In this document: in pieces, positions 9,944 to 30,150 of the stretch | Layout of the letters: each line of letters starts with the position of its first letter | How positions within the stretch are numbered: position 1 is the first letter of the stretch | Assembly (NCBI GenBank): GCA_964589945.1 | Contig: CAZPVG010000001.1 | Location: forward strand, 22,515 to 86,514 | Direction: 5' to 3' | DNA length: 64,000 nucleotides | Source: an uncultured bacterium | GTDB lineage: Bacteria > Eisenbacteria > RBG-16-71-46 | Made by a program: the position numbers and the translations under genes | The notes under the pieces: generated by a model | Database searches by the model: none | What the model was told of the DNA's origin: nothing | What the model saw: the letters and a program-made list of their open reading frames with translations, nothing else

Positions 9944-10119
9944 GTCCAACCTCCCGGAAGGTGGCGCGGACCCGGACGGGCCTCGCGAACGTCGCCTGAA
10001 GCATCGGCCGGCGTAGGGGAAAGTCTGTTCGCGGTCCTTCCGGCCGGTGTCAGTGAAGTGCAAAAGCTCCCCGGATCGGCGGCCCGCGGGCCCCGTTCGC
10101 GCGAGATTTCACCTGCTCG

Positions 10120-10148
10120 TTGACGCGTTACGGGCCGCTCCCTAGTGT
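10120..10148 (+). promoter_or_regulatory. sigma-70-like promoter candidate (TTGACG-N17-TAGTGT)
   Basis: TTGACG at 10120-10125 and TAGTGT at 10143-10148 with a 17-nt spacer, about 20 nt upstream of the ATG at 10169. Confidence 0.35.
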
Positions 10149-10168
10149 GCGCCGCGGACCGGAATCCC

Positions 10169-11359
10169 ATGCCCAAACGACGCTCGTCCTCGAAGAAGGG
10201 CCGCGGCCCCCTGTGGCTCGGACTGCTCGCCGCGCTCGCGCTGCTGCTCTTCGCCGGCGGCGAGCTGTACGGGTTCCTGCGTTCCGACGGCGCCCGGATC
10301 TTCCTGTGGCGAAACCTCTATCTCGGCGACCGGGCGCACGCCGTCCGCATCGTCGGCCGTCACGCCCGCGAAGGGCTCGCCGCGCTGGGCGTGCCCGCAT
10401 CCCGCGTCCGCGAGACGGTCATCGCCCGCGCCGGCCGGCCGCCCCTGCGCTGGACGGTGGACCTGCCGCGCGGCACCTCGCCGACGCAGGCCAACTACGC
10501 GGTGACGCAGGCGGTCCAGGCCGTGGGCGCGGAGGTGCTCGCCGCGCGCGAGGAGCCGGCGCCCGAAGGCGGACAGGTCGTCACGATGACCCTCGGGGTT
10601 CCCGGCCGGCCCACGCACGAGGTCGTGCTCGTGCGCCCGGGGGTGGATCCCGAATCGCCGGCGGCGACCGAGACGCGAGTCGCGATCGTGCTGTTCGGCC
10701 TCGCCGACGATCCGGCTTCGGCGAAAGCGCTGCTCGCACGGCCCGAGCCGTTCGCGGTGATCGCGCCCGCGATCGGCCAGGACAGCGACCCGCTGATCCG
10801 GCTCGCGCACGACTCGAAGCACCAGCTCGTGCTGCAGGTCCCGATGGAGCCCGAGGACTACCCGCGCGCGAACCCCGGCCCCGGCACGATGCTCGTCAAC
10901 ATGACCGCCGGCCGCATCGAGAAGATGACGCGCGACTACCTGGAGCACGCCGGCGGCGTGACCGCGGTGATGAACCTGCAGGGCTCCTTCGCGGCGCAGG
11001 ACGAGCCGTTCATGACCGCGTTCTACACCGAACTCAAGCACGCGGGCCTCACGTTCCTGCACCTCTCTCCGCCGCCGCGCTCGGTGGCCCGTCCGCTCGC
11101 GGCGCGCCTCGGCGTCGGCTACGACGAGCCCGACGCCATCCTCGACGACGAGGCCCGCAGCCGCACGACGAAGTCGCTCGACCGCGCGTGGGCCGCCCTG
11201 CTCGAGCGCAGGAAGGGCGGCCACACCGCCATCGTGCTGCTGCGGGCGACCCCGACGAGCGTGAAGTGGGCGCAGGAGGCGCTCGTGCCGAAGAAGCTCG
11301 AGGGTGAGGCGCACATCGTGCCGCTCTCGGCCGTGCTGCCGAAGATCGCGAAGGGCTGA
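10169..11359 (+). CDS. divergent polysaccharide deacetylase family protein (YibQ-like)
   Basis: N-terminal TM helix (PLWLGLLAALALLLFAGG), then a domain with AIVLFGLADDP...FAVIAPAIGQ...VLQVPMEPEDYPRANPGPGTML...TAVMNLQGS resembling the YibQ/DUF610-type divergent polysaccharide deacetylase fold. Confidence 0.7.
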   Translation: MPKRRSSSKKGRGPLWLGLLAALALLLFAGGELYGFLRSDGARIFLWRNLYLGDRAHAVRIVGRHAREGLAALGVPASRVRETVIARAGRPPLRWTVDLPRGTSPTQANYAVTQAVQAVGAEVLAAREEPAPEGGQVVTMTLGVPGRPTHEVVLVRPGVDPESPAATETRVAIVLFGLADDPASAKALLARPEPFAVIAPAIGQDSDPLIRLAHDSKHQLVLQVPMEPEDYPRANPGPGTMLVNMTAGRIEKMTRDYLEHAGGVTAVMNLQGSFAAQDEPFMTAFYTELKHAGLTFLHLSPPPRSVARPLAARLGVGYDEPDAILDDEARSRTTKSLDRAWAALLERRKGGHTAIVLLRATPTSVKWAQEALVPKKLEGEAHIVPLSAVLPKIAKG

Positions 11360-11401
11360 GCGGCGCGCCCGGGCGGGCGCGACCTGCTATCTTCCGCGCC
11401 G

Positions 11402-13417
11402 ATGTTCGACGGATCGAACGCTCCTCACGATTTCGCGGCGGCCACCGCGCGCGAATGGCTGCTCTCGGACGGCCGCGGCGGGTACGCCGCGGGCACGGCC
11501 TCGGGTGCGCCCACGCGCCGTGCGCACGCGCTGCTCGCGGCCCAGGCCGCATGGGGGCAGCCCGTGGCGCTCGTGCTGCGCTTCGAGGAGAAGCTCACGA
11601 CCGCCGCCGCGTCGCACGAGCTGTCGTCCTCGTGGTGGGCGCGGCCGGGCAGCGCGCCGGTGCCGCGCGCGGGGGCGTTCGAGCAGCTCGTCTCGTTCAC
11701 CGCCGACCCGTGGCCGGTGTGGACCTGGCGCTTCGACGACGTCGTGATCGAGCGCGCGCTGCGGCTCGTGGACGGCCACTCGGCGCTCGTCGCGTCGTGG
11801 ACGCTGCGCGAGGGCGGGCCGGTGCGGCTGAGCGTGGCGCCGCTGATCGCGGCCCGCGACCCGCTCTCGCTGCAGCGCGAGACGCCCGAGTTCCGCGGCG
11901 CGACGCAGGGCATCCCGGGGCGCGTGCTCGTCGAGACGCTGCCGGGCTGGCCGTCCGTGACGCTGTGGCACAACGGGGCGTACGTGCCCGCGCGCGGCTG
12001 GGCGAACGCGCTCGCCTACCCGCTCGACGCCGAGGACGCCGACGACGGCGACCCGGCCGCCGAGGGCGAGGACGCGTTCCGCCCCGGCTGGGTGCAGGCT
12101 TCGCTCGGCGCGCCCGGCGCGGCGCTGCACGTCGTGCTCTCCTCCGAGGAAGCGCTGTTCCGCTCGCTCGCCTCCGAGCTGCGGCTGGGCACGCCGCCCG
12201 CGCGCACGCTTCACGACTGCGTCGCGGCGCTGGATCGGGCGCAGCGCGGACGGCTCGGGGCCGAGCGCCGGGCGGCGCTCGAGGGGCTCGACTTCACCGC
12301 CCGGCAGGCGGCCGCGGCCCGCGGCAACGGCGCCGACCGCGTCGCACGCCGCCTCGAGCCGTTCGTGGACGCGGGCGATCCGCTCGCGGCGCCGCTCGCC
12401 GCCCAGGTGCGTGCGGCGCTGGTCACGCGCCACGGCCGGCTCACGCTGGTCGGCACCTGGCCCGAGATGGCCGAGCGCGGCTCCGACACGCTCCGCGCGG
12501 CGGCAGCGCTCGTCACGCTGCGCGACTTCGAGTCGGTGCGCGCGATCGCCCGCGGCTACCTCGACTACCTCGACGAGGGCCTCGCGCCCGAGTCGTTCGA
12601 TCCCGGAGACGGCACGCCCCGCTACGGCGACCCCGAGCCCTCGCTCTGGCTCGTGAACCTCGTGGATCTGCTCGCGCGCCGCGCCGAGGGCACCCCGGGC
12701 CAGGCGGAGTTCCTCGAGCAGGCGTGGCCGGCGCTCGAGCAGGTGCTTCACCACCTGCGCTCGGGCTCGCGGTACGGCGTCCACTGCGACCGCGAGGGGT
12801 TCCTCTGGTGCGGCGAGGGCGACACGGCGCGGGCGCGCGCGGGCACGAACGCGCTCTGGTACCACGGGCTCGTCGCCATGGCGCAGGTCGCGAAGCTGCT
12901 CGGCCGGCGCGAGAACGCGGCCTTCTACCTCGCGTGGGCGCACGAGCTGCAGCGCGGCTTCGCCGAGCGCTTCTGGGATGAGGAGGCCGGCTGCCTGTTC
13001 GAGTCGCTCACGCCCACGGGCGTCGTGCGCGGGCTGTCGGCGCCGCAGATCTGGGCGGCGGGCCTGCCGCCGACGCTGCTGCCGCTGCCGCTCGCGCAGC
13101 GGCTGCTGCGCACGGTCGAGCGCGAGCTGTCGGCGCGGGGTGGGCTGCTGGACCGGCCCGGCGAGGGCGGGCCGCGCGGCGAGTGGCTGGGCACGTGGGT
13201 CGCGGCGATGCTGCGCGTGCTCGCGCGGGAGGAAGGCGCGCCGGCCCTCGTGTACGCGCGGCTCGAGCGGGTCGTCACGCAGGTCCGCGAGCTGGGCGTG
13301 CTGCCCGGCGGCGACGCGCGCCGGCGCTTCTCGGCGCTCGCGGCGGCGGTGCTGCTGCGGGCGTGGATCGAGGACGTGGACCGCGAGGCGGTCGCGTCGG
13401 GCGCCCCCGGCCGCTGA
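11402..13417 (+). CDS. glycogen debranching enzyme-type protein (GDE N-terminal domain plus amylo-alpha-1,6-glucosidase)
   Basis: N-terminus AREWLLSDGRGGYAAGTASGAPTRRAHALL matches the archaeal-type GDE_N signature (EWL.tNG.GGYA.gT..G..TRRYHGLL). Later WLVNLVDLL...GFLWCGEGDTARARAGTNALWYHGL matches the six-hairpin glucosidase core. Confidence 0.75.
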   Translation: MFDGSNAPHDFAAATAREWLLSDGRGGYAAGTASGAPTRRAHALLAAQAAWGQPVALVLRFEEKLTTAAASHELSSSWWARPGSAPVPRAGAFEQLVSFTADPWPVWTWRFDDVVIERALRLVDGHSALVASWTLREGGPVRLSVAPLIAARDPLSLQRETPEFRGATQGIPGRVLVETLPGWPSVTLWHNGAYVPARGWANALAYPLDAEDADDGDPAAEGEDAFRPGWVQASLGAPGAALHVVLSSEEALFRSLASELRLGTPPARTLHDCVAALDRAQRGRLGAERRAALEGLDFTARQAAAARGNGADRVARRLEPFVDAGDPLAAPLAAQVRAALVTRHGRLTLVGTWPEMAERGSDTLRAAAALVTLRDFESVRAIARGYLDYLDEGLAPESFDPGDGTPRYGDPEPSLWLVNLVDLLARRAEGTPGQAEFLEQAWPALEQVLHHLRSGSRYGVHCDREGFLWCGEGDTARARAGTNALWYHGLVAMAQVAKLLGRRENAAFYLAWAHELQRGFAERFWDEEAGCLFESLTPTGVVRGLSAPQIWAAGLPPTLLPLPLAQRLLRTVERELSARGGLLDRPGEGGPRGEWLGTWVAAMLRVLAREEGAPALVYARLERVVTQVRELGVLPGGDARRRFSALAAAVLLRAWIEDVDREAVASGAPGR

Positions 13418-19000: not shown

Positions 19001-19211
19001 GGCGTGTTCCGGCTCGCGACGGAGGAAGCGCCATCGCCTCCACGGGTGAGCCGGGGCCGGCGGGCGGGGACAGGACTGGTGCGGGTGAGCCGGGGCGGGG
19101 CGGGAGGCCGATCGACCGCCGGGGCCCCGGCGCTCTTCGCAGGAATCACCCCTCGACCTTAGAGTGCGCGGGAACGGCCCCTTGCACCCTACCGATCAGG
19201 AGGATTCCGCG

Positions 19212-21182
19212 ATGCGTCGCGTGATGTTCGTCGTTTTCGCGCTCGCCCTCGCCGCGCCGGCGGCCCGCGCCGCGAAGGAGTCGCGGCCCACTTCGGCCGA
19301 CGTCGTGGAGCTGCGCGGCGCCTCGTCGCTCGCGCTCTCGCCCGACGGCACCCGCGTCGCGTACGTTCTCACCACCACCACGCACGATTCGACCGCGAAG
19401 CCGAAGGACGGCGACACGAAGGCCGGCTGGAAGGTCGAGCGCCAGCTCTGGCTCGCCGACGTCGCGGCGAAGACGACCCGCCAGCTCACGTGGAACGAGG
19501 CCGGGGCCGGTGCGCCGTGCTGGTCGCCCGACGGGCGCACGCTCGCCTTCCTGCGCCGCACCGGCGGCAAGACCGGGCTGCAGCTGCTGGCGCTGGCCGG
19601 CGGCGAGGCGATGCCGCTCCCGACCGGCGACCTCGAGCCGCGGGATCCCGCGTTCTCTCCCGACGGGAAGTCCATCGCGTTCCTCGCCGACGCGCCGCTC
19701 TCCGCCGCCGAGAAGAAGGCGCGCTGGGAACGCGGCGGCGCGGAGCACTGGGGACACGAGTTCCCCGAGACGAAGCTGTGGATCGTGCCCGTCGCCGGCG
19801 GCGAGCCGCGGCAGGTGGACGCCGGCCCCGACGTCGTCGCGTTCGCGTGGTCGCCGGACGGCAGGCGGTTCGCGGTCGAGACCTGCGACAGCGGCGATCC
19901 CTACGTCGTCTCGAGCCTGACGCGCATCGCGATCGTGGACGCCGACGGCAAGGCGCCCGCGCGCGTCGTGGACCGGCCCGCGGGCTCGTTCGGCGCGCCG
20001 CTCTGGTCGCCCGACGGCCGGTGGGTCGTCGTCGCCGGCCTGAACGGCGGGCTCTCGAACCTGAACGCGCTCTACCTGTGCGATCCCGCGACCGGGAAGG
20101 TTCGCGACCTCGCGCCGGACCCCGACCGCACGTTCGGGAGCTGCGTCTGGGGCGCTGATTCGAAGTCGGTCGTCGCCGTCGTGCTCGCGCGGACCGCCAC
20201 GAAGCTCGAGCGCTTCCCGCTCGAAGGCGCGCCCTCGGAGCTCCCGTTCGACCGCGTGATCACCGGCGGCCTCGCGCCCGACGGCGCGTCGCGGCGGTTC
20301 GCGTTCGAGTCGTCCACGGACCGCACGCCGTACGAGGTGACCGTGTACGACCCCGCCGCCGGCGCGACCACGGTGGTCACCGACCTCAATCCCGAGGTCG
20401 CCTCGTGGAAGACCGGCGCGACGCAGGTCGCGCGCTGGAAGGACGCGGAAGGCGTCGAGATCGAGGGCGTGCTCACGCTCGCGCCCGGCGCGAAGGCCGG
20501 CTCGCCCGCACCGCTCATCGTGTTGCCGCACGGCGGGCCGGACGGCGTCACGAACACCGGCTTCTCGTGGCTCACGCAGTACATGGCCTCGCGCGGCTAC
20601 TCCGTGCTGCGCCCGAACTACCGGGGCTCGCTGGCCTACGGCTTCGCGTTCTACGCGGCGAACCGGAACCGCTTCGGCGAGGTCGAGCAGGCCGACGTCG
20701 AGAGCGGCGTGGACCAGCTGATCCGCGACGGCCTCGCGGACCCGAAGAAGCTCTACTTCGGCGGCTGGTCGTGGGGCGGCTACATCACCACCTGGATCGT
20801 CACGCACGTGCACCGGTACCGCGCCGCCGTGGCCGGGGCGGCCGTGTCGGACGTGTTCCATTCGTACTCGCTCAGCGACATCAACCACGGCGTCGCCGCG
20901 CAGTGGGAGTTCGAGGGCGATCCCTGGCGGCAGACGGAGCACTTCGACCGCGTGAACCCGATCCGCTACGTGACGAACGTGACCACGCCGCTGCTGCTCC
21001 TGCACGGCGAGGCCGACACGCGGGTGCCGTTCGCCGAGACCGTGCAGTTCTACCGGGCGCTCTCGGATCTCGGGAAGGAGGTCGAGTTCTGGGCATACCC
21101 GCGCGAGAACCACGGCTTCCACGAGCCGGCCCACCGCGTGGATTACATCCGGCGCTGGGTGGACTGGTACGACGCCCACTAG
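19212..21182 (+). CDS. S9-family serine peptidase (prolyl oligopeptidase / acylaminoacyl-peptidase type) with N-terminal beta-propeller
   Basis: AGGAGG 8 nt before ATG. Signal peptide MRRVMFVVFALALAAPAARA. Repeated WSPDG...propeller blades. C-terminal alpha/beta-hydrolase with the GGWSWGGY nucleophile elbow, plus later D and H (HGEADTRVP...ENHGF). Confidence 0.85.
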   Translation: MRRVMFVVFALALAAPAARAAKESRPTSADVVELRGASSLALSPDGTRVAYVLTTTTHDSTAKPKDGDTKAGWKVERQLWLADVAAKTTRQLTWNEAGAGAPCWSPDGRTLAFLRRTGGKTGLQLLALAGGEAMPLPTGDLEPRDPAFSPDGKSIAFLADAPLSAAEKKARWERGGAEHWGHEFPETKLWIVPVAGGEPRQVDAGPDVVAFAWSPDGRRFAVETCDSGDPYVVSSLTRIAIVDADGKAPARVVDRPAGSFGAPLWSPDGRWVVVAGLNGGLSNLNALYLCDPATGKVRDLAPDPDRTFGSCVWGADSKSVVAVVLARTATKLERFPLEGAPSELPFDRVITGGLAPDGASRRFAFESSTDRTPYEVTVYDPAAGATTVVTDLNPEVASWKTGATQVARWKDAEGVEIEGVLTLAPGAKAGSPAPLIVLPHGGPDGVTNTGFSWLTQYMASRGYSVLRPNYRGSLAYGFAFYAANRNRFGEVEQADVESGVDQLIRDGLADPKKLYFGGWSWGGYITTWIVTHVHRYRAAVAGAAVSDVFHSYSLSDINHGVAAQWEFEGDPWRQTEHFDRVNPIRYVTNVTTPLLLLHGEADTRVPFAETVQFYRALSDLGKEVEFWAYPRENHGFHEPAHRVDYIRRWVDWYDAH

Positions 21183-21304
21183 CGGGAACGGGGGAACGGC
21201 CCTTGCGCGCTCCCGCCCCGGACCGTAACCTGCCGTCCTTCGCGCCCTGAGGCGTTCCAAGTCCCTGTCGACCGGGGCTTTTGCCGTCCGTTCAAGGAGA
21301 ACCT

Positions 21305-22825
21305 ATGCGTGCTCGTCTCTGGCTCCTCCCGCTGGTGCTGGCCGCCCTCGTCGGGGCGGGTGCAGCCGCGGCCGAGCCCCTCGGAGCCCACTGGGAGCTG
21401 TCGCCGTTCGGCGGCTTCACCATCTTCGATCCCAAGCTGCGCTACCCGGGCAGCGACCTGCCCCTGGCCGACGACCTCTACATGGGCGGCCGGCTGAGCT
21501 ACGAGTCGCGGTCGTGGATCGGGCTCGAAGCCGCGGCGGGAACGACGCCGACCGCGCAGGACATCCCGAGCGGGGCGCTCGAATACGACTTCTTCCACGC
21601 TTCCGGCAACCTGGTGATCTCGCCGGCGAAGAGCCGCTGGGGCACGCCGTACGCGTTCGTGGGCGGCGGCTACGTGCAGCTCAAGCCGTCCTCGGGCGAG
21701 AAACGCGAGACCGGCTCCATTGAGTTCGGCGGCGGCGTGAAGATGTGGATGACGGACGTGATCGGCCTGCGCTTCGAGGCGCGGGACATCTCGTTCAAGC
21801 CACTCGAGAACGTCGGGGGCCAGAGCCACTACCACAACGTCGTGCTCGGCGCCGGCCTGACGCTGGCGATCGGCGCGACGCCGCGCGACACCGACGGCGA
21901 CGGCGTGCCCGACAAGAAGGACAAGTGCCCGGACACGCCGAAGGGCGCCGTGGTGGACGCGACCGGCTGCCCGATCGATTCCGACGGCGACGGCGTGTAC
22001 GACGGGCTCGACAAGTGCCCGAACACGCCGAAGGGCGCCACCGTGGACGCGACCGGCTGCCCGAGCGACAGCGACGGCGACGGCGTCTTCGACGGCATCG
22101 ACAAGTGCGCGGACACGCCGAAGGGCGCGACCGTGGACGCGACCGGCTGCCCGAAGGACTCCGACGGCGACGGCGTGCTCGACGGCCTCGACCAGTGCCC
22201 GAACACGCCGGTCGGCGCGAAGGTGGATTCCGCCGGCTGCCCGATCGACAGCGACGGCGACGGCGTGTACGACGGGCTCGACAAGTGCCCGGATACGCCC
22301 GCCGGCCTGAAGGTGGACGCCAACGGCTGCCCGATCGAGGTCATGGAGAAGGAGACGGAGCTGCTCGATACGGGCCTCATCCGCCTCGACAACGTGAACT
22401 TCGACACGGGCAAGGCGGACATCCTGCCGGAGTCCTACCCGACGCTCGATGCCGTCGGAGCGGTCATGCTCAAGTGGCCGCAGCTGCGCATCGAGGTCGG
22501 CGGCCACACGGACTCGCGCGGAAGTCGCGCGACGAACCTCAAGCTGTCCCAGGCCCGCGCCGACTCGGTGCTCGCTTACATCCTGCGGAAGTACCCGCAG
22601 CTGCCGCGCGACCAGTTCACGGTGAAGGGCTACGGCTCGAGCCGGCCGCTGGTGCCGAACACGAACGATCTCAACATGGCCAAGAACCGCCGCGTCGAGT
22701 TCGTCGTGCTCAACAAGGAAGTGCTGAAGAAGGAAGTCGAGAAGCGCCGCCTGCTGAAGGAAGGCGAGGGCGCCCCGAGCGACACCACGCAGGGCGCGCC
22801 GCCCGATTCCACGAAGCAGGACTAG
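21305..22825 (+). CDS. OmpA-family outer-membrane protein with N-terminal beta-barrel, five thrombospondin type-3 (TSP3) repeats and C-terminal OmpA domain
   Basis: AAGGAG 5 nt before ATG; signal peptide. Five repeats of DxDGDGVxDxxDKCPxTPxGAxVDAxGCP. C-terminus NFDTGKADILPESYPTLDAVGAVMLKWPQLRIEVGGHTDSRGS...NRRVEFVV is the OmpA peptidoglycan-binding signature. Confidence 0.85.
   Translation: MRARLWLLPLVLAALVGAGAAAAEPLGAHWELSPFGGFTIFDPKLRYPGSDLPLADDLYMGGRLSYESRSWIGLEAAAGTTPTAQDIPSGALEYDFFHASGNLVISPAKSRWGTPYAFVGGGYVQLKPSSGEKRETGSIEFGGGVKMWMTDVIGLRFEARDISFKPLENVGGQSHYHNVVLGAGLTLAIGATPRDTDGDGVPDKKDKCPDTPKGAVVDATGCPIDSDGDGVYDGLDKCPNTPKGATVDATGCPSDSDGDGVFDGIDKCADTPKGATVDATGCPKDSDGDGVLDGLDQCPNTPVGAKVDSAGCPIDSDGDGVYDGLDKCPDTPAGLKVDANGCPIEVMEKETELLDTGLIRLDNVNFDTGKADILPESYPTLDAVGAVMLKWPQLRIEVGGHTDSRGSRATNLKLSQARADSVLAYILRKYPQLPRDQFTVKGYGSSRPLVPNTNDLNMAKNRRVEFVVLNKEVLKKEVEKRRLLKEGEGAPSDTTQGAPPDSTKQD
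21887..22333 (+). repeat. tandem array of about 117-nt TSP3-repeat coding units (5 copies) inside the ompA-family gene
   Basis: Reiterated GACGGCGACGGCGT...GACAAGTGCCC...ACGCCGAAGGGCGC...GTGGACGCGACCGGCTGCCCG blocks. Coordinates are approximate. Confidence 0.6.
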
Positions 22826-22844
22826 GGCGCGACGCCAGGACGGG

Positions 22845-22870
22845 GGCCGGCGCGGGCGACCGCGCCGGCC
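22845..22870 (+). terminator. GC-rich hairpin between convergent ompA-family and DUF2892 genes
   Basis: GGCCGGCGCGG-gcga-CCGCGCCGGCC: an 11-bp stem followed by CTTCGTG, 20 nt after the stop at 22825. Confidence 0.35.
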
Positions 22871-22913
22871 CTTCGTGCGTCCGCGCGGGCCGCCGGGCGC
22901 GCGACCGCGCGAC

Positions 22914-23117
22914 TCAGCCGCGGGGCTTCGCCTGCGGCGGGCGGGCCGTCGAGATACCGAACGGCAGGTAGAGCGGGCACCAGCGGACGGAGGCCGTGAG
23001 GAGCGGGACGAGCCCGATCGCGCCCCACCAGTTCTTCGCACCGAGGCCCCAGATCACCAGGGCGAGGCCCACGATGATGCGGACCGCGCGATCCGTCGTG
23101 CCCATGTTGCACTTCAT
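22914..23117 (-). CDS. DUF2892-family small membrane protein (YgaP-like TM domain)
   Basis: GGAGG 6 nt before ATG at 23117. MKCNMGTTDRAVRIIVGLALVIWGLGAKNWWGAIGLVPLLTASVRWCPLYLPFGISTA matches the DUF2892 pattern (G..DR..R...G......G......W.....GL..L.TG...fCP.Y..lG..T). Confidence 0.65.
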   Translation of the reverse strand: MKCNMGTTDRAVRIIVGLALVIWGLGAKNWWGAIGLVPLLTASVRWCPLYLPFGISTARPPQAKPRG

Positions 23118-23308
23118 GACGCTCCTCCTCGGGTGAGGGTCCGGCGGGCCGACGGATGCCCCCGCCGGCCACGGGGCCAGCATCGCTCGCCCGGTGGCCC
23201 CCGTCTGCGGGCGCGGTCACGCACGGGAGAATTCATTCCGGGTCATCGGCGCGCCCCTTGCGCGACGCGGCGTCCCGGGCGAGGCTGCCGCCATCACCGG
23301 GAGGAGCC

Positions 23309-24058
23309 ATGTCGATCCAGGACGAAAGGGACCTCGAGGGCCTGCGCGCCGCCGGGCGGGCGGTGCGGGCGGCGCTCGAGGCGATGCGCGACGCGGTCGC
23401 GCCGGGCGTGACGACGGCGGAACTGGACGCGATCGGCGAGCGCGTGATGCGCGAGCACGGGGCGCGCTCCGCGCCACGCCTCGTCTACCGGTTCCCGGGC
23501 GTCAACTGCATCAGCGTGAACGACGAGGTCGTGCACGGCATCCCGTCGGCGAGGCGCCGCCTGGCCGAGGGCGACCTCGTGAAGCTCGACGTCACGTTCG
23601 AGAAGGGCGGCTACATGGCGGACGCCGCGATCACGGTGCCGGTGGGCCGCGTGTCCGACCGGGTGCTCGCGCTCGCGGCCTGCGCGGAGCGGGCCTTCGC
23701 CGAGGCGCTGCGCGAGGCGCGGCCGGGACGGCGCGCTCGCGACGTGGGCCGCGCGGTCGAGCGCGTCGTGCGGAGCCAGGGCTTCTCGGTGGTGCCGGCG
23801 CTGCAGGGCCACGGCATCGGGCGCACGATCCACGAGGACCCGATGATGCCGAACTGGGACGACCCGGCGGCGGACGGGGTCCTGACCGAGGGCCTTGTCC
23901 TCACCGTGGAGCCGATCCTCGCGATGGGCAGCGGCGACTCGTACGAGGACGCGGACGGCTGGACGATCCGCACCGCGGACGGCTCGCTCGCGGCGCACCA
24001 CGAGCACACGCTCGTCGTGACGGCGTCGGGGCCGCTACTGCTGACGGCGGCGGCGTAG
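23309..24058 (+). CDS. map: type I methionine aminopeptidase
   Basis: GGGAGGAG before ATG. ...GVTTAELD...CISVNDEVVHGIP...GDLVKLDVTFEKGGYMADAAITVPVG...HGIGRTIHEDP...VLTVEP...HHEHTLVVT matches the MAP1 metal-binding and His motifs. Confidence 0.9.
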   Translation: MSIQDERDLEGLRAAGRAVRAALEAMRDAVAPGVTTAELDAIGERVMREHGARSAPRLVYRFPGVNCISVNDEVVHGIPSARRRLAEGDLVKLDVTFEKGGYMADAAITVPVGRVSDRVLALAACAERAFAEALREARPGRRARDVGRAVERVVRSQGFSVVPALQGHGIGRTIHEDPMMPNWDDPAADGVLTEGLVLTVEPILAMGSGDSYEDADGWTIRTADGSLAAHHEHTLVVTASGPLLLTAAA

Positions 24059-24104
24059 GGGCGCGACGGCTCGCGCGGGCGAGAAGCCCGGGGAGCGCCG
24101 CGGC

Positions 24105-25292
24105 TCAGGTGGTCTCCCACCTCCGTGCCAGCCTCCTCGCGATCGCGAAGAACAGGACGCCGAAGGCGGTGAGCATGGCGAGCTGCGGCCAGAGGGCGGC
24201 GAGGGACTGGTCGCGCCAGAAGACCTTGAGGTAGCCGTCGAGCGCCCACGAGTTGAAGCCGACGAGCGAGAGCTTCTGCATCGTCTCGCTCATGAGCGGG
24301 CGCGGGTACATGCTGCCGCCGACGCCCGACAGGGTGAGCACGACGAGGTTCGCGAGGCCCTGCAGCTGCTGGCGCGTGCGCGCGGCCGTCGCGATCACGA
24401 GACCGAAGGCGGCGCAGCAGCCGGCGGTGAAGACCGTCACGACGGCGAATCCGGCGAGGTGCGGGAGCAGCGGCAGCCGGAAGACGAGCGCCCCCCAGGC
24501 GAACATGACGGCGATCTGCAGCACGCCGAGCCGCGTGATGTGGAGCCACTTCGCGAACAGCAGCCGGCCCATGCCGACGCGGCTCGACAGCACGCGCTCG
24601 AGCGTGCCGCTCTCGTTCTCCTCGATCAGCGAGCCGCCGGAGTTGCTGGCGGTGAACATCAGGAACATCACGGCGATCGCCGCCGCGTAGAACGCCACGA
24701 AGCCGTTCGGGCGGTCCTCGCGCCTGCCGACGACCGGCACTTCGCGGGTGCGCGCGGGCATCAGGTCCTCGACGGGCGTCGCGGCCGACGCGGCCCCGAA
24801 CTCCGCGGCCTCGGCCCGGCCGGCGTTCAGCACCGCGCGCTGGAGGAGCCCGGCAGCCATGCGGGGCGCCACGGGGTCCGAGGGGTCGGTCAGCAGGATC
24901 ACGGCCTCGCCCCGGCCGTCGAAGCGCGAGAGCGAGGTGTCGATGCCGGCCGGCAGGACGATCGCCACCGAGCAGGCGCCCTCGCGCACGAGCGCCTCGG
25001 CCCGTGCACGGTCGAGGACGACCTGCGTCGTGTCGGCGGGACCACGGCGCCAGGTGGTGTGCACGCGCAGGCTCGGGTCCTCGGCGAGCGCGGTCACGAC
25101 GCGGGCGCTCGTCTCGGTGCGGGACTCGTCCACGACGAGCACACTCACGCTGCGTGTCGCGACGTCCTGCTGCTGCCCGAAGATCATCGCGAAGATCGAG
25201 AAGAAGACGATGGGCACGACGAACACGAGCACCTGCACGGAGCGATCGCGCCACAGGTTCGTCCAGGCGACGCGCATCAGGGTCCGGATCAT
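24105..25292 (-). CDS. ABC-2 type transporter permease
   Basis: Six or more hydrophobic segments with a large extracytoplasmic loop after TM1, the typical ABC-2 (YhhJ/NatB-like) architecture. ATG at 25292 overlaps the ATPase stop (ATGA). GGAG Shine-Dalgarno. Confidence 0.75.
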
Positions 25293-26200
25293 TCGCGGAG
25301 CTCCTTTCCGGTGAGCGCGAGGAAGACCTCGTGCAGGCTCGAGGCGCGCACCTCGAGATCGAGCACGGCGAGCCCGGCCTCGCGCACGCGCCCGAGCAGC
25401 GCGGGCAGCTCGCCCGCGACGTCCGCGATGCTGGCCGTCAGCTCACCGCCGCCGTCGGCCAGCGCGAGGCCGGCCGGCGCCGCGGCGGCGGGACGGTCGA
25501 GCCGCAGCCGGACCCGGCGATCCGCCAGGCCGGCCTGCGCGACGAGCTCGGGCAGCGTCCCCGACGCGAGCACGCGGCCGTGGTCCACGATCACGACCCG
25601 CTGGCTGCGGGCCTCGGCCTCGGCAAGATCGTGGGTCGTCAGGAGCAGCGATACGCCGGACGCCCGCAGCGCCGAGAGCATGTCGTGGATCCGCTCGCGG
25701 CTCTGCGGGTCCACGCCCACGGTGGGCTCGTCGAGCAGCAAGACCTTCGGCTCGTGCAGCACCCCGCAGGCGATGTTGAGACGGCGCTTCATTCCGCCGG
25801 AGAACGTACGGACCTGCGCCTTCGCGCGCTCGGCCAGCCCCGTCCACTCCAGCGCCCGGCGCACGCGCGCGGCGAGCGCTGGGCCTGCGACCCCGCCGAG
25901 CCGGCCGAAGGCCTCGAGGTTCTCGCGCGCCGTGAGCGAGGGGTACAGCGCGATCTCCTGCGGCACGATGCCCAGCTCGGGCCGGGGCGACTCGGGCGCG
26001 AGGTCGCGCCCGAACAGCGAGAGCCGCCCGCCGTCGAGACGCACGCGGCCCGCGAGCGCGCGCACCAGCGTGGTCTTGCCGGCGCCATTCGGACCCAGGA
26101 GCGCCAGCATCTCGCCCTGGCGCAGGTCGAGGGAGACACCCCGCAGCGCTTCGACGGCGCCGAAGCGCTTGCGGGCCCGATCGACCTCGAGTACCGCCAT
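25289..26200 (-). CDS. ABC transporter ATP-binding protein
   Basis: GGAGGAGG 5 nt before ATG at 26200. Walker [11 protein letters not shown]-loop, signature [12 protein letters not shown], Walker [12 protein letters not shown] and H-loop TTHDL. Confidence 0.85.
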
Positions 26201-26469
26201 GACCGCCTCCTCCATTCGCCCCTCCGGGCCGGGCCGGCCGGGTCCGGGGCACGCGCGCAGGATCACCGCCGGGAGCCGGCGGGACGACGGTCATGCGCCG
26301 GACGGTCTCGGGAGGCGGACGAACGGTCGCCCGGGACGCCGGGAGGCTGGGAGGCCGTTCTTGCCGCCTTGCCGGGTCCGGCGCGTTCGTCCTATGTTCT
26401 GCCGCATTCGCACCGCGCATCCCGCTCGACATCGACGTCGCTTCTCTCGGCCCACAGGAGGTGGACCCC

Positions 26470-27945
26470 ATGCGCTCACGTGTCGCTCTGTCGTCGCTGC
26501 TGCTCGCGGCCGCCGTCGCATTCGCGGCAGGCACCGCGAGCGCCGCGGCCCCGGAAGGGAGCCTCTTCTGGCTCACCCCCATGGCGGGCTACGGCTTCTT
26601 CTCGGACAAGCATCAATACCCGGTCGACCGTGCCCTGGCCGACGCGCCCGTATTCGGCGCCCGGCTCGGGGCGCGTCTCAACCCGTGGTGGGATCTCGAG
26701 GTCGCCGGTTCGTATTCGAAGCCGGACGAGATCGCAAATCCCGACCACAGCTACTCGGCCAAGGTCATGGACGTGTCGGGCAACCTGATGTTCACGCCCA
26801 TCCAGTGGAACATCGGCGCGCCCTATTTCGCCGCGGGCGGCGGCTACGTGCGCTACGAAACCGACGTCACCGGCGTGGACGAGAGCCACTTCGGCACGTT
26901 CGAGGCGGCGATCGGGTGGCGCTCGTGGATGAGCAGCCACCTCGCGCTGCGGCTCGAGGCGCGCAACATCCTGTCGCTCCCGGACCGCCACTGGGGCACG
27001 GCGTCGAACAAGGCCGACCAGCAGGTGTGGGCCGGCCTCGACTTCGCCTGGGGCGGCAAGCCGAAGGACACCGACATGGACGGCGTGCCGGACAAGAAGG
27101 ACAAATGCCCGGACACGCCGCAGGGCGCCACGGTGGATGCCAACGGGTGCCCGACCGATTCCGACGGTGACGGCGTCTGGGACGGCCTCGACAAGTGCCT
27201 CGGCACGCCGAAGGGCGCGACCGTGGATGCCAGCGGCTGCCCGAAGGACACCGACGGTGACGGCGTCTACGACGGCATCGACAAGTGTCCCGACACGCCG
27301 AAGGGCGCGACCGTGGACGCGACCGGGTGCCCGAAGGACTCCGACGGCGACGGCGTCTACGACGGTCTCGACAAATGCCCGAACACGCCCACCGGCGCGA
27401 CGGTGGACGCCAGCGGCTGCCCGAAGGACTCCGACGGCGACGGCGTCTACGACGGCCTCGACCAGTGCCCCGACACGCCCGCCGGCCTCAAGGTGGACGC
27501 CGACGGCTGCCCGATCGAGGTGACCGAGAAGGAGACGGAACTGCTCGACACGGGCATGATTCGGCTCCAGGGCGTCAACTTCGCGACGGGCAAGGCCGAC
27601 CTGGCGCCGGATTCGTATTCGGCCCTCGACGCGGTCGGCGCCGTGCTGCGCAAGTGGCCGCAGCTGCGCATCGAGATCGGCGGCCACACGGATTCGCGCG
27701 GCTCGGCGAGTTCGAACCAGAAGCTGTCCGAGGCCCGGGCGGAGTCGGTGCGGAACTACCTGCTCAACAAGTTCCCCGAGATCAAGCCCGAGCAGCTCAC
27801 CGCGAAGGGCTACGGTGAGTCCCGGCCGATCGCCCCGAACAACAGCGCGCTCAACATGGCGAAGAACCGGCGCGTCGAGTTCGTGGTGCTCAACAAGGAC
27901 GTCCTGAAGAAGGAAATCGAGAAGCGCAAGATGCTGAAGAAGTAG
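26470..27945 (+). CDS. OmpA-family outer-membrane protein with TSP3 repeats (paralogue of 21305..22825)
   Basis: AGGAGG before ATG; signal peptide MRSRVALSSLLLAAAVAFAAGTASA. Same barrel, five TSP3 repeats and OmpA domain as the upstream paralogue, with about 80-85% nucleotide identity over repeat and C-terminal regions by eye. Confidence 0.85.
   Translation: MRSRVALSSLLLAAAVAFAAGTASAAAPEGSLFWLTPMAGYGFFSDKHQYPVDRALADAPVFGARLGARLNPWWDLEVAGSYSKPDEIANPDHSYSAKVMDVSGNLMFTPIQWNIGAPYFAAGGGYVRYETDVTGVDESHFGTFEAAIGWRSWMSSHLALRLEARNILSLPDRHWGTASNKADQQVWAGLDFAWGGKPKDTDMDGVPDKKDKCPDTPQGATVDANGCPTDSDGDGVWDGLDKCLGTPKGATVDASGCPKDTDGDGVYDGIDKCPDTPKGATVDATGCPKDSDGDGVYDGLDKCPNTPTGATVDASGCPKDSDGDGVYDGLDQCPDTPAGLKVDADGCPIEVTEKETELLDTGMIRLQGVNFATGKADLAPDSYSALDAVGAVLRKWPQLRIEIGGHTDSRGSASSNQKLSEARAESVRNYLLNKFPEIKPEQLTAKGYGESRPIAPNNSALNMAKNRRVEFVVLNKDVLKKEIEKRKMLKK
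27067..27511 (+). repeat. tandem TSP3-repeat coding array (5 copies) inside the second ompA-family gene
   Basis: Reiterated DTDGDGVxDxxDKCPDTPxGATVDAxGCP coding units. Coordinates are approximate. Confidence 0.6.
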
Positions 27946-27971
27946 CGCTCTTCGATCCGGAATCGCGGGAC

Positions 27972-27999
27972 GGGGCCGCGGCAGCGATGCCGCGGCCCC
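27972..27999 (+). terminator. GC-rich hairpin after second ompA-family gene
   Basis: GGGGCCGCGG-cagcgatg-CCGCGGCCCC: a 10-bp perfect stem 27 nt after the stop at 27945. Confidence 0.4.
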
Positions 28000-28263
28000 G
28001 TTCGCTTCCGGCGCGGTTTCCCGCAGCGGCTGCGGCACCCGCCCCAGACCGGGCGCCCCGGGTCCGGCGCGCGACGCACGACCACCGGCGCCGGCCTGCC
28101 CGCCGCCGCCGCAAGCCGGTGCCCCGCAGGAGCCCACGGGGCCCCCGGGGGGCGTGCGTCCCGCAAGGCCTCCGGGGCACGGCCGTTGCGCTGGAAGGGG
28201 TTATCGCGACGCCCGCCGCCTCCCCGGCCGGCGCTCGCGGGACCGACCCAGGAGGCAACCCCC

Positions 28264-28830
28264 GTGATCTCCCAGTCCATCCGCGGAGCCCTCTCGCTGG
28301 CCCTGGCCGCCGGCCTCTTCGTCGCCGGCTGCTCGGCCCTGCCCTCGTCCCGGAGCGCTTCCGGCGCCGAATCGCGGGCGACGGCCGCCCCCGGCCCGCC
28401 CTCCGGCCGGGCCGCGACCGCGACGGCCGCCGCCCAGGAGGCCGGGGCGTCGCGAACGGTCTACGTCCGGGCGATCTACGGCGGCACCGTGAGCGCCGGG
28501 AACTTCAGCGTCGTGATTCCGCCCGGCGCCCTGAAGGCCGACGGCATCGTCACCGTCCGCCAGGGTGATCTCTCACAGCCGGTCGTGGACGTGAGCATCA
28601 CCCCCGAGGACCGCAACGACTTCCTGAAGCCCGTGCAGCTCGTGGCGGACGCCGCGCCGATGGACCGCGCGCTCCTCGCGAACGCATCCCTGAGCTGGTG
28701 GGACCCGGACTCGTCGAAGTGGACGCCCTGCCCGGGTTCGCACGTGAACGTGGCAGACGCCACCGTGCAGGCACCGCTCAGGCACTTCTCAAGGTACCGC
28801 GTCGAGAGCGCCGGCCGCTCGGGCTGGTAG
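28264..28830 (+). CDS. lipoprotein (hypothetical)
   Basis: GTG at 28264 with AGGAGG 7 nt upstream. Signal peptide VISQSIRGALSLALAAGLFVAGC with the lipobox L-F-V-A-G-C. No recognisable catalytic motif. Confidence 0.5.
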   Translation: MISQSIRGALSLALAAGLFVAGCSALPSSRSASGAESRATAAPGPPSGRAATATAAAQEAGASRTVYVRAIYGGTVSAGNFSVVIPPGALKADGIVTVRQGDLSQPVVDVSITPEDRNDFLKPVQLVADAAPMDRALLANASLSWWDPDSSKWTPCPGSHVNVADATVQAPLRHFSRYRVESAGRSGW

Positions 28831-28962
28831 GCGCGACCCCGGGCGACCCGGGCGGCGGGCCGGCCCCCGGCCCGCCGCGAGGCTTTGGTGGGCGGCTCCG
28901 GCGATGGCAAGATGCGGCGGACGCCGCCGTCCGCCCCCGGCCCCCAACGCAGAGGCCCGCCC

Positions 28963-30150
28963 ATGAGCATCGCCACGCCCGTCTTCACGGGTCCCGAGAT
29001 CGACGAGCTGATCGCCGTCCGTCGGGACCTTCACCAGCATCCCGAACTCGGCTTCGAGGAGGTCCGCACGTCGGGGCTGATCGCGACGAAGCTGCGCGCA
29101 CTCGGCCTCGAGCCCCGGACCGGCGTCGGCCGCACCGGCGTCGTCGCGGTGCTGCAGGGCGGCCGGCCCGGCAAGACGGTGCTTCTGCGCGCCGACATGG
29201 ATGCGCTGCCGATCCAGGAGGCGAACGACACGCCGTACTGTTCGCTCTCGGACGGGCGGATGCACGCGTGTGGGCACGACTGCCACGTCAGCATCCTGCT
29301 TGCGGTGGCGAAGCGCCTCGTCGCCGAGGGGAAGGACCTGCCGGGCCGGGTCGTGTTCGTCTTCCAGCCGGCCGAGGAGCTCGGGGGCCCGAAGGGCGGC
29401 GCCGAGGCGATGATCCAGGACGGGCTGCTCGACGACCCGAAGCCCGACGCCGCGTTCGGGCTGCACGTGTGGCAGGACCTGCCCGTCGGCACGGTCGGCG
29501 TGACGGCGGGGCCGTGGATGGCCGCCGTGGACGAGTTCACCGTCAAGGTGCGGGGGCGCGGCGCGCACGGCGCGATGCCGCAGGCGAGCCGCGACCCGGT
29601 CGTGTGCCTCGCGCACATGGTGACCGCGCTCCAGACGATCGTCTCGCGCAATGCCGACCCGTTCCACCAGGCCGTCGTGAGCGTGACCCGGCTGGGCGCC
29701 GGCACCGCGTTCAACATCATCCCCGAGACCGCGTGGATGAACGGAACGATCCGCGTCTTCGACCTCGACCTGCACGCCGCCATCCCCGGCATGTTCGAGC
29801 GGGTCGTGAAGGGCGTCGCGCAGGCCCTCGGGTGCGAGGCCGAGATCCTCTTCGAACGCGGCAACCTGCCCACGGTCAACGACGCCGCGATGTGTGCCTA
29901 CCCGCGGGCCGCCGCCGTCGAGGTCGTCGGGGAGGCGAGGGTCCGCGACGACGTGCGCACGATGGGCGGCGAGGACTTCTCGGCCATCCTCGCCAGGGTC
30001 CCCGGCGTGTTCATCGCGATCGGCTCGCGCAACGAGCAGCGGGGGCTGGTCTGGGACCATCATCACCCGAGGTTCGACGTGGACGAGGAGTGCCTGCGCA
30101 TCGGCGCCGAGGTGCTGCTCGGCACGGCGAAGAGGTTTCTCGCGTCATGA
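28963..30150 (+). CDS. M20D-family amidohydrolase (N-acyl-amino-acid amidohydrolase / hippurate hydrolase type)
   Basis: IAVRRDLHQHPELGFEE...LLRADMDALPIQE...HACGHD...FVFQPAEE...GAHGAMP...MGGEDF are the M20D metal-binding motifs. Confidence 0.85.
   Translation: MSIATPVFTGPEIDELIAVRRDLHQHPELGFEEVRTSGLIATKLRALGLEPRTGVGRTGVVAVLQGGRPGKTVLLRADMDALPIQEANDTPYCSLSDGRMHACGHDCHVSILLAVAKRLVAEGKDLPGRVVFVFQPAEELGGPKGGAEAMIQDGLLDDPKPDAAFGLHVWQDLPVGTVGVTAGPWMAAVDEFTVKVRGRGAHGAMPQASRDPVVCLAHMVTALQTIVSRNADPFHQAVVSVTRLGAGTAFNIIPETAWMNGTIRVFDLDLHAAIPGMFERVVKGVAQALGCEAEILFERGNLPTVNDAAMCAYPRAAAVEVVGEARVRDDVRTMGGEDFSAILARVPGVFIAIGSRNEQRGLVWDHHHPRFDVDEECLRIGAEVLLGTAKRFLAS

Follow-up and report, generated by a model that had tools for sequence, protein, structure and literature searches.

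Anciently diverged TSP3-repeat OmpA paralogues flank map at an inherited locus in the Eisenbacteria

The window, the 64-kb stretch of Eisenbacteria DNA analysed here, carries two genes for outer-membrane proteins, OmpA-a and OmpA-b, which are old paralogues and not recent copies, and which form an ordinary, largely stable feature whose layout has been passed down in a large part of the Eisenbacteria sampled. We consider it probable that the two are anciently diverged paralogous tethers of the cell envelope, that the identity of their common module is mostly due to constraint and codon bias, and that they are weak recombination substrates. Both proteins are ordinary new members of a protein architecture that is itself already known (PDB 5WTL).

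OmpA-a (21305..22825, + strand; 506 aa) starts at an ATG with a Shine-Dalgarno-like AGGAG upstream (AAGGAGA), and OmpA-b (26470..27945, + strand; 491 aa) at an ATG with AGGAGG upstream. Each is an intact ORF encoding a signal peptide, a beta-barrel of a or b type, five TSP3 units and an OmpA-like domain, with Pfam matches above cut-off to OMP_b-brl, TSP_3 and OmpA (37.3, 63.3 and 64.9 bits in OmpA-a; 40.2, 66.3 and 78.9 bits in OmpA-b), in agreement with the shared architecture assigned to these genes in the original prediction. The signal peptide of OmpA-a is without a lipobox, and neither protein carries a lipobox Cys. OmpA-a ends in an a-type C-terminal tail (EGEGAPSDTTQGAPPDSTKQD), and OmpA-b ends in KRKMLKK*, without a tail. 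The a-type barrel region (21377..21883, + strand; aa 25-193) has 31-35% amino acid identity to the b barrel. The TSP3 array of OmpA-a (21887..22336, + strand) consists of five units of 90 nt (30 aa), every one of which carries a DxDxDGxxDxxD motif and two Cys, and that of OmpA-b (27067..27516, + strand) likewise of five 90-nt units, the motifs lying at an exact 30-aa spacing in both (aa 195/225/255/285/315 and aa 200/230/260/290/320). An internal tandem array of about 117 nt had been proposed; TRF instead returns a period of 90 nt in both genes (5.0 copies at 21886-22338 in OmpA-a, 4.6 copies at 27100-27514 in OmpA-b, with matches of 83-84% in both arrays). The OmpA-like domain of OmpA-a, predicted to bind peptidoglycan (22400..22690, + strand; aa 366-462; PF00691, E = 9e-18), aligns to PDB 5wtl and conserves GHTDS.G...N..LS..RA. 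An S9 peptidase with a PD40 propeller (19164..21182, + strand; Pfam) lies upstream of OmpA-a, as it also does in the closest relative, L002, while OmpA-b is followed by a 214-aa protein without a Pfam match (28186..28830, + strand) and by an M20 peptidase (28885..30150, + strand; Pfam) whose place downstream of the b copy is conserved.

The two genes lie in direct orientation with 3,644 nt between them, and the content of this segment is as first described: a DUF2892 gene, map and an ABC-2 exporter. The first gene (22914..23183, - strand; 89 aa) encodes a YgaP-like transmembrane protein (formerly DUF2892; PF11127 YgaP-like_TM, 82.2 bits) and is lineage-specific cargo, missing at this place in L002. 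The second is map, for a type I methionyl aminopeptidase (23309..24058, + strand; TIGR00500, 271.7 bits against a cut-off of 171.35), with an ATG start at 23309 preceded by GGGAGGAG; in relatives it is the sole cargo gene constantly found between both OmpA copies. An ABC-2 type transporter permease (24105..25292, - strand; 395 aa; PF12698 (ABC2_membrane_3), 131.3 bits) has an identical counterpart on Logan contig L001, and the adjoining DrrA-like ABC transporter ATPase (25289..26215, - strand; PF00005 (ABC_tran), 118.8 bits; TIGR01188, 238.8 bits, below cut-off) is 308 aa long by the gene call in L001, its longest ORF extending to 26266.

In a blastn comparison the two genes match over 876 nt at an identity of 82.2% (E = 0; positions 583-1455 in OmpA-a and 598-1470 in OmpA-b), a value far beyond chance and within the 80-85% originally estimated for the repeat and OmpA regions. 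The shared tract (21887..22759 paired with 27067..27939, both + strand) spans the TSP3 units and the OmpA domain in register, with 162 mismatches, and its longest identical run is 35 nt (22112..22146, + strand; partner 27292-27326), which with the next 29 nt makes a 65-nt stretch with one mismatch. Similarity is limited to this part of the genes, the barrels being about 52% identical in nucleotides; blastn detected none in the flanks outside the coding tract, and these two are the only copies of the gene in the 64-kb window. Across genomes, nucleotide identity over TSP3 and OmpA is 0.73-0.81 (mean 0.784) for a and b of the same genome, 0.71-0.78 (mean 0.758) for a and b of different genomes, and 0.79 for a-a and b-b orthologues. 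Because copies from different species also reach about 76-79%, the 82% of the window pair is barely above them and close to a family plateau.

Alignment and phylogeny, the checks proposed in the original prediction, both identify old paralogues, an outcome that the prediction itself had named as counting against it. The barrels of OmpA-a and OmpA-b differ by a dN of 0.88, and a-type barrels, single-copy genes included, are monophyletic with 94% bootstrap support. Synonymous sites are at or near the expectation from codon bias, the same codon being used at identical residues 36 times against 36 expected in the barrel, 71 against 64-65 in the OmpA domain and 103 against 80-86 in TSP3. In many Eisenbacteria MAGs each barrel type has orthologues of its own (62-88% identity for those of OmpA-a), and the C-terminal ends are type-specific across species. 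At least five further species-level MAGs retain the order a...map...b, with a-map-ABC2-ABC-b common to L013, L014 and L017, a...map-b-M20 common to L005 and L007, and partial layouts in L003, L011, L012 and L015; the layouts have lasted even though identity between orthologues is down to 55-75%. Logan contig L001 (SRR9700627), which was assembled independently from the same population, is 99.94% identical to and collinear with window positions 22262-27321, with 3 mismatches, and ends at the 35-nt run.

Both proteins would be of a known kind of outer-membrane-to-cell-wall tether with three modules each, in which an N-terminal beta-barrel would be seated in the outer membrane, the five TSP3 units would form a rigid, calcium-binding and disulfide-braced spacer across the periplasm, and the OmpA-like domain would bind peptidoglycan. 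The copies would thus differ mainly in the barrel, the part predicted to face the membrane and the outside, and would have in common a slow-evolving periplasmic module, whose 82% nucleotide identity probably results mostly from purifying selection that is strong and a codon bias that is extreme (GC3 ~0.94), possibly with a contribution from old, occasional gene conversion; recent duplication is not indicated. Besides map, the pair frames a small group of genes that are mostly envelope-related and differ from species to species, and crossovers between the copies are probably rare and visible, if at all, only on an evolutionary time scale.

The closest structural counterpart is the TSP3 and OmpA periplasmic part of an OmpA family protein in PDB 5WTL, which we take to be from Capnocytophaga gingivalis and to which residues 194-467 align (E = 4e-43); the pair of Cys in every unit and the motif GHTDS.G...LS..RA are conserved. 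The proteins described here differ in coming from another phylum, in having 30-aa units with a longer conserved segment between motifs (KCPDTPKGATVDATGCP), and in occurring as two paralogues with different barrels at one locus. The plan of barrel, TSP3 and OmpA has also been reported for the 5WTL class, the structure paper being given in the reference list of PMC12045341 as Dai et al. 2017, Cell Calcium 66:78. Classical OmpA of E. coli and Omp38/OmpA of Acinetobacter likewise join an outer-membrane barrel to a periplasmic, peptidoglycan-binding OmpA-like domain, and the C-terminal domain matches PDB entries 3td3, 4erh and 3nb3; in those proteins, however, a short Pro/Ala-rich hinge stands in place of the five-unit TSP3 spacer, and the NCBIfam model for Omp38 scores far below its cut-off. 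The best NCBIfam match, the PA1041 family peptidoglycan-binding anchor lipoprotein (NF053612; 199-208 bits), is through the TSP3-like units and OmpA domain, but falls below the cut-off of 250 and describes lipoproteins without a barrel, whereas a barrel is present here and a lipobox Cys is not. Identity with Myxococcus xanthus TraB, the partner of TraA in outer membrane exchange, was rejected, since the NCBIfam TraB model gives 187-197 bits against a cut-off of 700, matches only the TSP3/OmpA part, and no traA-like gene is adjacent.

Several signals speak against constraint as the main cause of the module's identity, beginning with the apparent age of the C-terminal module, which is too low for that of the barrel. 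With rates calibrated on WIN-L014 orthologues (WIN being the window), barrel distances place the a/b split at about 2.2 times the age of the WIN-L014 speciation, while the TSP3 and OmpA parts date it to about 0.8-1.0 times that age, and the module is not at a hard identity ceiling, as its identity to sequences of other phyla is no more than 50-64%. Repeated gene conversion confined to TSP3 and OmpA could instead be the main cause of the ~80% identity, with barrels too diverged to pair left to drift; we hold this to be possible but clearly the less likely account. Among site patterns of sequence quartets, 'concerted' ones, in which the two copies from a single genome have the same state, lie well above noise in the TSP3 and OmpA parts, though not in the barrel, at nucleotide as well as amino acid level (WIN-L017 TSP3: 9 orthology, 26 concerted, 5 noise), but the closely related species L013, L014 and L017 display clean orthology (35-46 orthology against 3-5 concerted). 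Hardly any residues between aa 194 and 481 are diagnostic of type, and monophyly of a and b has 0-19% support in C-terminal trees against 94% for barrels, a loss of signal that hints at occasional gene conversion. L007a and L007b group in 79% of OmpA-domain bootstraps, but a cluster of WINa, L002a and WINb appears in only 25% of TSP3 bootstraps, and the window pair has only 4 shared-derived residues. The higher identity of a and b within than between genomes also favours conversion, but the excess is only 2-5 points and could reflect shared codon usage and lineage-specific constraints. Also in favour is the TSP3 dS of the window pair, which at 0.32 is as low as that of the closest orthologue pair. 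In a permutation test the 65-nt stretch gives p = 0.013 over the whole tract but 0.08 within TSP3 only, and positional correspondence is preserved unit by unit (a1-b1 86%, a3-b3 92%, a5-b5 90%). Segments are exchanged by gene conversion between the babA and babB paralogues of Helicobacter pylori and between duplicated tuf genes, which have long near-identical tracts and conversion measurable in culture. The pair resembles these in its direct-repeat paralogy, its conserved and divergent modules, exchange hints only in the conserved module, and hybrids, but differs in its identity of ~82%, with tracts of at most 35 nt, and in the indirect nature of the evidence for exchange.

It had further been suggested that the pair acts as a recombination substrate, and we regard active recombination in present populations, which would delete or amplify the 3.6-kb segment and alter the number of TSP3 units, as improbable. 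Over evolutionary time the suggestion gains from hybrids and single-copy loci. Three genes join an a barrel to a b-type end, and two of them are flanked as a deletion would leave them. In L080/P0064 the a flank (Rnf, DUF2330) is followed by a gene with an a barrel and an OmpA domain of b type, and then by the 3' flank of b; in L081/P0039 an a barrel and b-type end are followed by an orthologue of the 214-aa protein gene downstream of b, while P0123, whose overall identity to P0039 is at least 90%, retains a normal a tail. The third, P0043, is a protein record only, and the other two lie on soil metagenome contigs of 2.3-4.4 kb that may be assembly chimeras; misjoins in a de Bruijn graph are a plausible source where k-mers are shared, and it is precisely at k-mers of this kind that the Logan contig breaks. 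End type is moreover not a perfect marker, because three b-barrel genes with a-like tails sit in a normal b context where flanks exist. In L006, L008 and L009 there is one gene only, with an a barrel, and M20 follows it directly. For the present day, the evidence is mostly against the suggestion: the copies are 18% divergent, and with a longest identical run of only 35 nt the pair is predicted to be a poor substrate, recombination in B. subtilis falling ~45,000-fold at 20.8% divergence and needing >40 bp of identity (MEPS) (PMC4824099). Logan contig L001, the sole independent assembly of the population, is collinear, and the layout is conserved between divergent species. No duplication product occurs among 78 loci, and a JGI metagenome scan found neither parental nor recombinant junctions. 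As to slipped-strand variation in repeat number, unit number does vary among homologues (3-4 in ~16% of a-type and ~30% of b-type, 6-11 in a few), but five units are kept in 21 of 22 copies at syntenic loci, and the 90-nt units, being 72-92% identical among themselves, are not slippage-prone. The original observation is partly confirmed, being right for the most part, and its interpretation is partly supported. Given the too-young module, concerted patterns, C-terminal clustering, hybrids and single-copy loci, recombination between the copies probably played some part, alongside the constraint that we prefer as the main cause.

A recent origin of the pair by duplication, tandem or segmental, of one OmpA gene in the lineage, which the 82% identity, like domain order, like unit number and direct orientation might suggest, is very unlikely and was rejected on barrel phylogeny and synteny, together with the low barrel identity, the state of synonymous sites, the dissimilar flanks, and the separate orthologues and distinct ends of each type in many species. 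Origin of the second copy, or of the TSP3 similarity, in a collapsed or chimeric MAG assembly is just as hard to credit: TSP3 units do share k-mers of at least 31 nt within and between the genes, at which assemblers break, but the independent Logan assembly repeats the arrangement, and both intact genes have their own orthologues in the same layout in other MAGs.

The two paralogues lie on the same strand of a window of approximately 73% G+C, OmpA-a at 21305-22825 (an ORF of 506 aa) and OmpA-b at 26470-27945 (491 aa), each with its ATG start codon 7-9 nt downstream of an AGGAG-type ribosome-binding site. The best relatives of the proteins encoded in the window are found in MAGs labelled Candidatus Eisenbacteria. 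As originally predicted, both genes encode a barrel, five thrombospondin type 3 (TSP3) units and an OmpA domain, with Pfam scores above cut-off in every case: PF13505 (OMP_b-brl) at 37.3 bits in OmpA-a and 40.2 in OmpA-b (cut-off 28.7), PF02412 (TSP_3) at 63-66 bits in both (cut-off 25), and the C-terminal PF00691 at 64.9 and 78.9 bits (cut-off 27.2). In each protein the five DxDxDGxxDxxD motifs recur at intervals of exactly 30 residues, and every unit has two Cys. Both proteins have a Sec-type, non-lipoprotein signal peptide, and the N-termini read from the sequence, MRARLWLLPLVLAALVGAGAAAAEP and MRSRVALSSLLLAAAVAFAAGTASAAAP, are free of Cys. The periplasmic TSP3 and OmpA part of an OmpA family protein, PDB 5wtl, aligns with residues 194-467 (E = 4e-43), including the predicted peptidoglycan-contact motif GHTDS.G...LS..RA, which here reads GHTDSRG...LSQARA. 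Both copies therefore combine the barrel, the OmpA-like domain with its Asp/Arg motif and the Sec signal that characterise OmpA family outer-membrane proteins, and their tandem motifs with a Cys pair per unit are those of the bacterial TSP3-repeat spacer of 5WTL. By homology only, this spacer would be predicted to bind calcium in a disulfide-dependent manner. The extreme C-termini differ by type, ending in an ...EGxxAP...DSTK tail in a copies and in ...RKMLQK* in b copies.

This architecture is already known: the 5WTL protein described by Dai et al. reportedly has it, and public annotation names the relatives "OmpA family protein / TSP3 repeat-containing protein". Two more specific families were considered. 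TraB, of outer membrane exchange, matched below its cut-off (NF033763, 196.7 and 186.3 bits against 700), with no adjacent traA and with peptidase, map and ABC genes as neighbours. The PA1041 family anchor lipoprotein likewise matched below cut-off (NF053612, 199.1 and 207.7 bits against 250), and this family is a lipoprotein without a barrel, whereas OmpA-a and OmpA-b have a barrel and no lipobox was seen. As these NCBIfam matches are only below cut-off, both proteins fall outside both families; they are plain OmpA family, TSP3 repeat-containing proteins, and the scientific weight of the pair is small.

The 3,644 nt between the two copies hold four genes: a YgaP-like/DUF2892 membrane protein (22914-23183, minus strand), the type I methionyl aminopeptidase gene map (23309-24058; TIGR00500, 271.7 bits, cut-off 171.35), an ABC-2 permease (24105-25292, minus) and its partner ABC ATPase (25289-26215 or 26266, minus). 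Neither a third TSP3-OmpA copy nor a second map was found within the 64-kb window. A consensus scan of 21000-28400 found no promoters or terminators, a result that is uninformative at 73% GC. Between 17076 and 31738, on both strands, every real gene is overlapped by antisense and out-of-frame ORFs as long as 900 aa; these are the usual by-product of approximately 73% G+C and no evidence of genes.

The similarity of the two genes is confined to their periplasmic modules. In blastn, positions 583-1455 of the a gene match 598-1470 of the b gene at 82.2% over 876 nt, and gapless in-register comparison of the shared tract gives 162 mismatches, so that its identity is 81.5-82.2%, depending on the comparison; the identity of 80-85% originally estimated by eye was therefore accurate, but applies only to the stretch that begins with the first TSP3 unit and runs to the end of OmpA-b. 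In the barrels, identity is approximately 52% for nucleotides and 31-35% for amino acids. The tandem array in each gene, which had been put at a period of about 117 nt, in fact has a period of 90 nt, with approximately five copies at 83-84% matches. Units in the same position are 86% (a1-b1), 92% (a3-b3) and 90% (a5-b5) identical between the genes, against 72-87% between units of one gene. This preserved correspondence implies that the five-unit array is older than the duplication, and that the units have not been recently homogenised.

Synonymous sites, barrel phylogeny and synteny all show that the copies are old. We compared the number of identical codons at residues shared by both proteins with that expected from codon usage alone. 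The barrel had 36 against 36 expected and the OmpA domain 71 against 64-65, with a modest excess in the TSP3 part (103 against 80-86). GC3 is 0.93-0.94 in both genes, a bias which by itself leads to high third-position identity, and NG86 dS, which plateaus at approximately 0.3-0.8 from codon bias, is a relative guide only and not a clock. The original prediction had named old paralogy as the outcome that would speak against it, and this is what phylogeny found: in a survey of 78 related loci, taking one genome per GTDB species, a-type genes from at least 12 MAGs formed a clade apart from b-type genes in the barrel tree, with 94% bootstrap support. A recent segmental duplication is rejected, as the second copy is not restricted to one lineage and the pair is not near-identical DNA of low synonymous divergence. 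Constraint and extreme GC3 bias can keep old paralogues approximately 80% identical in DNA, of which this pair is a clean example, and visual inspection of a high-GC genome can misread such identity as recent duplication.

Synteny is in agreement with this age. Both types occur in the same order in five other loci, arranged as a-map-(GT87)-ABC2-ABC-b in L013, L014 and L017, with the M20 peptidase gene next in L014, and as a...map-b-M20 with other cargo in L005 and L007; partial layouts are seen, as far as the contigs reach, in L002 (the closest relative), L003, L004, L011, L012 and L015. In the syntenic genomes, map, M20 and S9 peptidase orthologues are only 54-77% identical to those of the window, so that the layout has outlasted a long divergence. 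Further pairs of homologues sharing a contig include P0002/P0128, P0007/P0130, P0045/P0157 and P0063/P0219. Three loci (L006, L008 and L009) have a single a-barrel gene, immediately upstream of M20. The survey documents that Eisenbacteria, an uncultured phylum, have conserved two predicted OmpA tethers that are spaced by TSP3 units and differ in their barrels.

The cargo between the copies varies by species, map being its sole constant. It includes a GT87 glycosyltransferase in L013, L014 and L017 (L013:8232-9533, L017:6050-7315), an MprF-like LPG_synthase_C protein (L007:2171-3979), a FlgD_ig/Por_Secre_tail protein (L005:3263-5944) and a 1,729-aa NHL-repeat/GDSL protein (L003:11647-19168). 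The YgaP-like/DUF2892 gene of the window is a 353-nt extra piece (22903-23256) relative to L002, in which OmpA-a leads directly to map, and is also absent from that position in L004, L013 and L014. Upstream of OmpA-a lies an S9-family peptidase with a PD40 beta-propeller (19164-21182), and several Gemmatimonadales loci (L053, L058, L064, L066 and L067) have two adjacent OmpA genes followed by an S9 peptidase; S9 peptidase with TSP3-OmpA is a neighbourhood common to different phyla. Between OmpA-b and M20, 28186-28830 encodes a 214-aa protein with a signal- or lipoprotein-like N-terminus and without a Pfam match, for which an orthologue (44% identical) was found in L081 and in none of the other loci examined (E<=1e-10, at least 50% query coverage).

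The 82% identity of these old copies is not exceptional. Over the TSP3 and OmpA parts, a and b copies are 0.73-0.81 identical in nucleotides within a genome (0.812 in the window) and 0.71-0.78 between genomes (mean 0.758), and a-a and b-b orthologues each average 0.79. The window pair therefore exceeds by just a few points what any two family members of different species show, and constraint on the periplasmic module together with codon bias accounts for most of its identity. Some observations point to exchange between the copies. Kimura distances with rates calibrated on the orthologues of the window and L014 (our own calculation) place the a/b split approximately 2.2 times deeper than the speciation of these two genomes by the barrels, and at approximately 0.8-1.0 times by the TSP3 and OmpA parts. 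Nor has the module reached a ceiling, as its identity in other phyla is only 50-64%. Quartet site patterns in which both copies of one genome are alike are well above noise in TSP3 and OmpA, in nucleotides and amino acids, with no such excess in the barrel. In C-terminal trees the a/b grouping has only 0-19% support; the a and b copies of L007 fall together in 79% of OmpA-domain bootstraps.

For the window pair itself the signal of exchange is weak. Both window copies group with the a copy of L002 in just 25% of TSP3 bootstraps, and they share four derived residues. For a stretch of 65 nt with a single mismatch, p is 0.013 when the whole tract is considered and 0.08 when TSP3 alone is. Rate variation among sites confounds a hypergeometric test for positions derived in the two copies, which carries little weight. 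Constraints shared within a lineage would be one alternative to conversion. Another is that the barrels diverged in a burst once the gene had been duplicated; b barrels still evolve faster, with b-b nucleotide identity of 0.58 against 0.72 for a-a. Between the window and L014, amino acid identity is 0.46 for the b barrel (26551-27063) and 0.62 for the a barrel (21377-21883). Given these alternatives we rate occasional, old gene conversion between the copies as plausible only, and somewhat less probable than its absence.

Recombination between the copies was raised as a possibility in the original prediction, in which the direct repeats could delete or amplify the intervening 3.6-kb segment. 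The substrate available is 18% divergent, with a longest identical run of 35 nt and only four runs reaching 24 nt. In B. subtilis, the drop in recombination is log-linear and reaches approximately 45,000-fold at 20.8% divergence; the minimal processing segment (MEPS) is given as >40 bp (PMC4824099). With its longest identical tract below this MEPS, the pair is a poor candidate for a recombination-prone direct repeat. The sole independent view of this population, the Logan contig L001 (SRR9700627), is collinear with 22262-27321 at 99.94% identity. It begins and ends inside TSP3 arrays, one end (27291-27321) falling exactly at the 35-nt shared run, where 31-mers become common to both genes, which indicates that the TSP3 repeats break up assemblies made from short reads and could give rise to chimeras. 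Amplification products were absent from the loci surveyed. A 190-nt IUPAC pattern around the 35-nt run, which would fit either parental form and either recombinant junction, matched none of them in JGI metagenomes. The repeats in this genome are old, apparently stable and poor recombination substrates.

This possibility fares somewhat better elsewhere, since 3 of the best 120 OmpA-a homologues have an a barrel and a b-type end. In L080 (protein P0064), a-type upstream genes (Rnf and DUF2330, as in L004, L013 and L014) precede an a barrel 80-86% identical to that of the L014 a copy, while the OmpA domain is 86-92% identical to the b copies of L012 and L013 and the 3' flank still matches the b flank. 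In L081 (P0039), an a barrel is followed by approximately 45 last residues that are b-like and then by a gene orthologous to the one for the 214-aa protein downstream of OmpA-b in the window; P0123, a relative at least 90% identical to P0039, keeps an a tail. These two hybrids, from ERZ27257700 (L080) and JGI 3300047678 (L081), are on soil-metagenome contigs of 2.3 and 4.4 kb, and the third, P0043, is a protein record only. Both L080 and L081 are the expected product of a crossover between a and b with loss of the intervening segment, and also of a de Bruijn misjoin. Because the shared k-mers of at least 31 nt in TSP3 units interrupt or wrongly join assemblies from short reads, caution is needed with any hybrid OmpA gene that a metagenome catalogue lists for such genomes.

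The single-copy genes of L006, L008 and L009 have a-like tails, which might mark them as a-type genes rather than chimeras. This use of the tail is weakened by L082 (1-2609), where a b barrel in its normal context, with an ABC ATPase upstream and M20 downstream, has a long, Pro-rich tail like that of the single-copy a-barrel gene in L008. The M20 of L082 is 83% identical to that of L008 and L009 (loci compared around 10001-11600), and related genomes therefore differ in the barrel type preceding M20. The original interpretation is partly supported: across the phylum, these data hint at a role for conversion and infrequent crossovers in shaping the locus. A more complete scheme, which we consider improbable, is a system of two barrels on one stalk, in which conversion limited to the module would keep both copies fit for one cell wall and rare crossovers within the module would exchange or join barrels, with the envelope genes between the copies being lost or taken along. 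Were this correct, Eisenbacteria lineages would acquire surface barrels of different kinds on one shared anchor, and the hybrids L080, L081 and P0043 and the single-copy L006, L008 and L009 would be real products.

Slipped-strand variation in repeat number, also originally predicted, is not borne out: units of 90 nt that are 72-92% identical are not prone to slippage, and a contingency locus of this kind is rejected, as unit number differs only between distant homologues. Five units are present in all syntenic copies but one, in 98 of 120 a-type homologues and in 72 of 104 b-barrel homologues. The remaining homologues mostly have 3-4 units and a few have 6-11, with protein length changing in steps of approximately 30 aa. 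Unit number changes between lineages, with five strongly preferred. Among the longest arrays, of 7-11 motifs, are those of P0085 (791 aa), P0191 (791 aa) and P0078 (562 aa), and P0085 has a PF15965 domain where the barrel would be.
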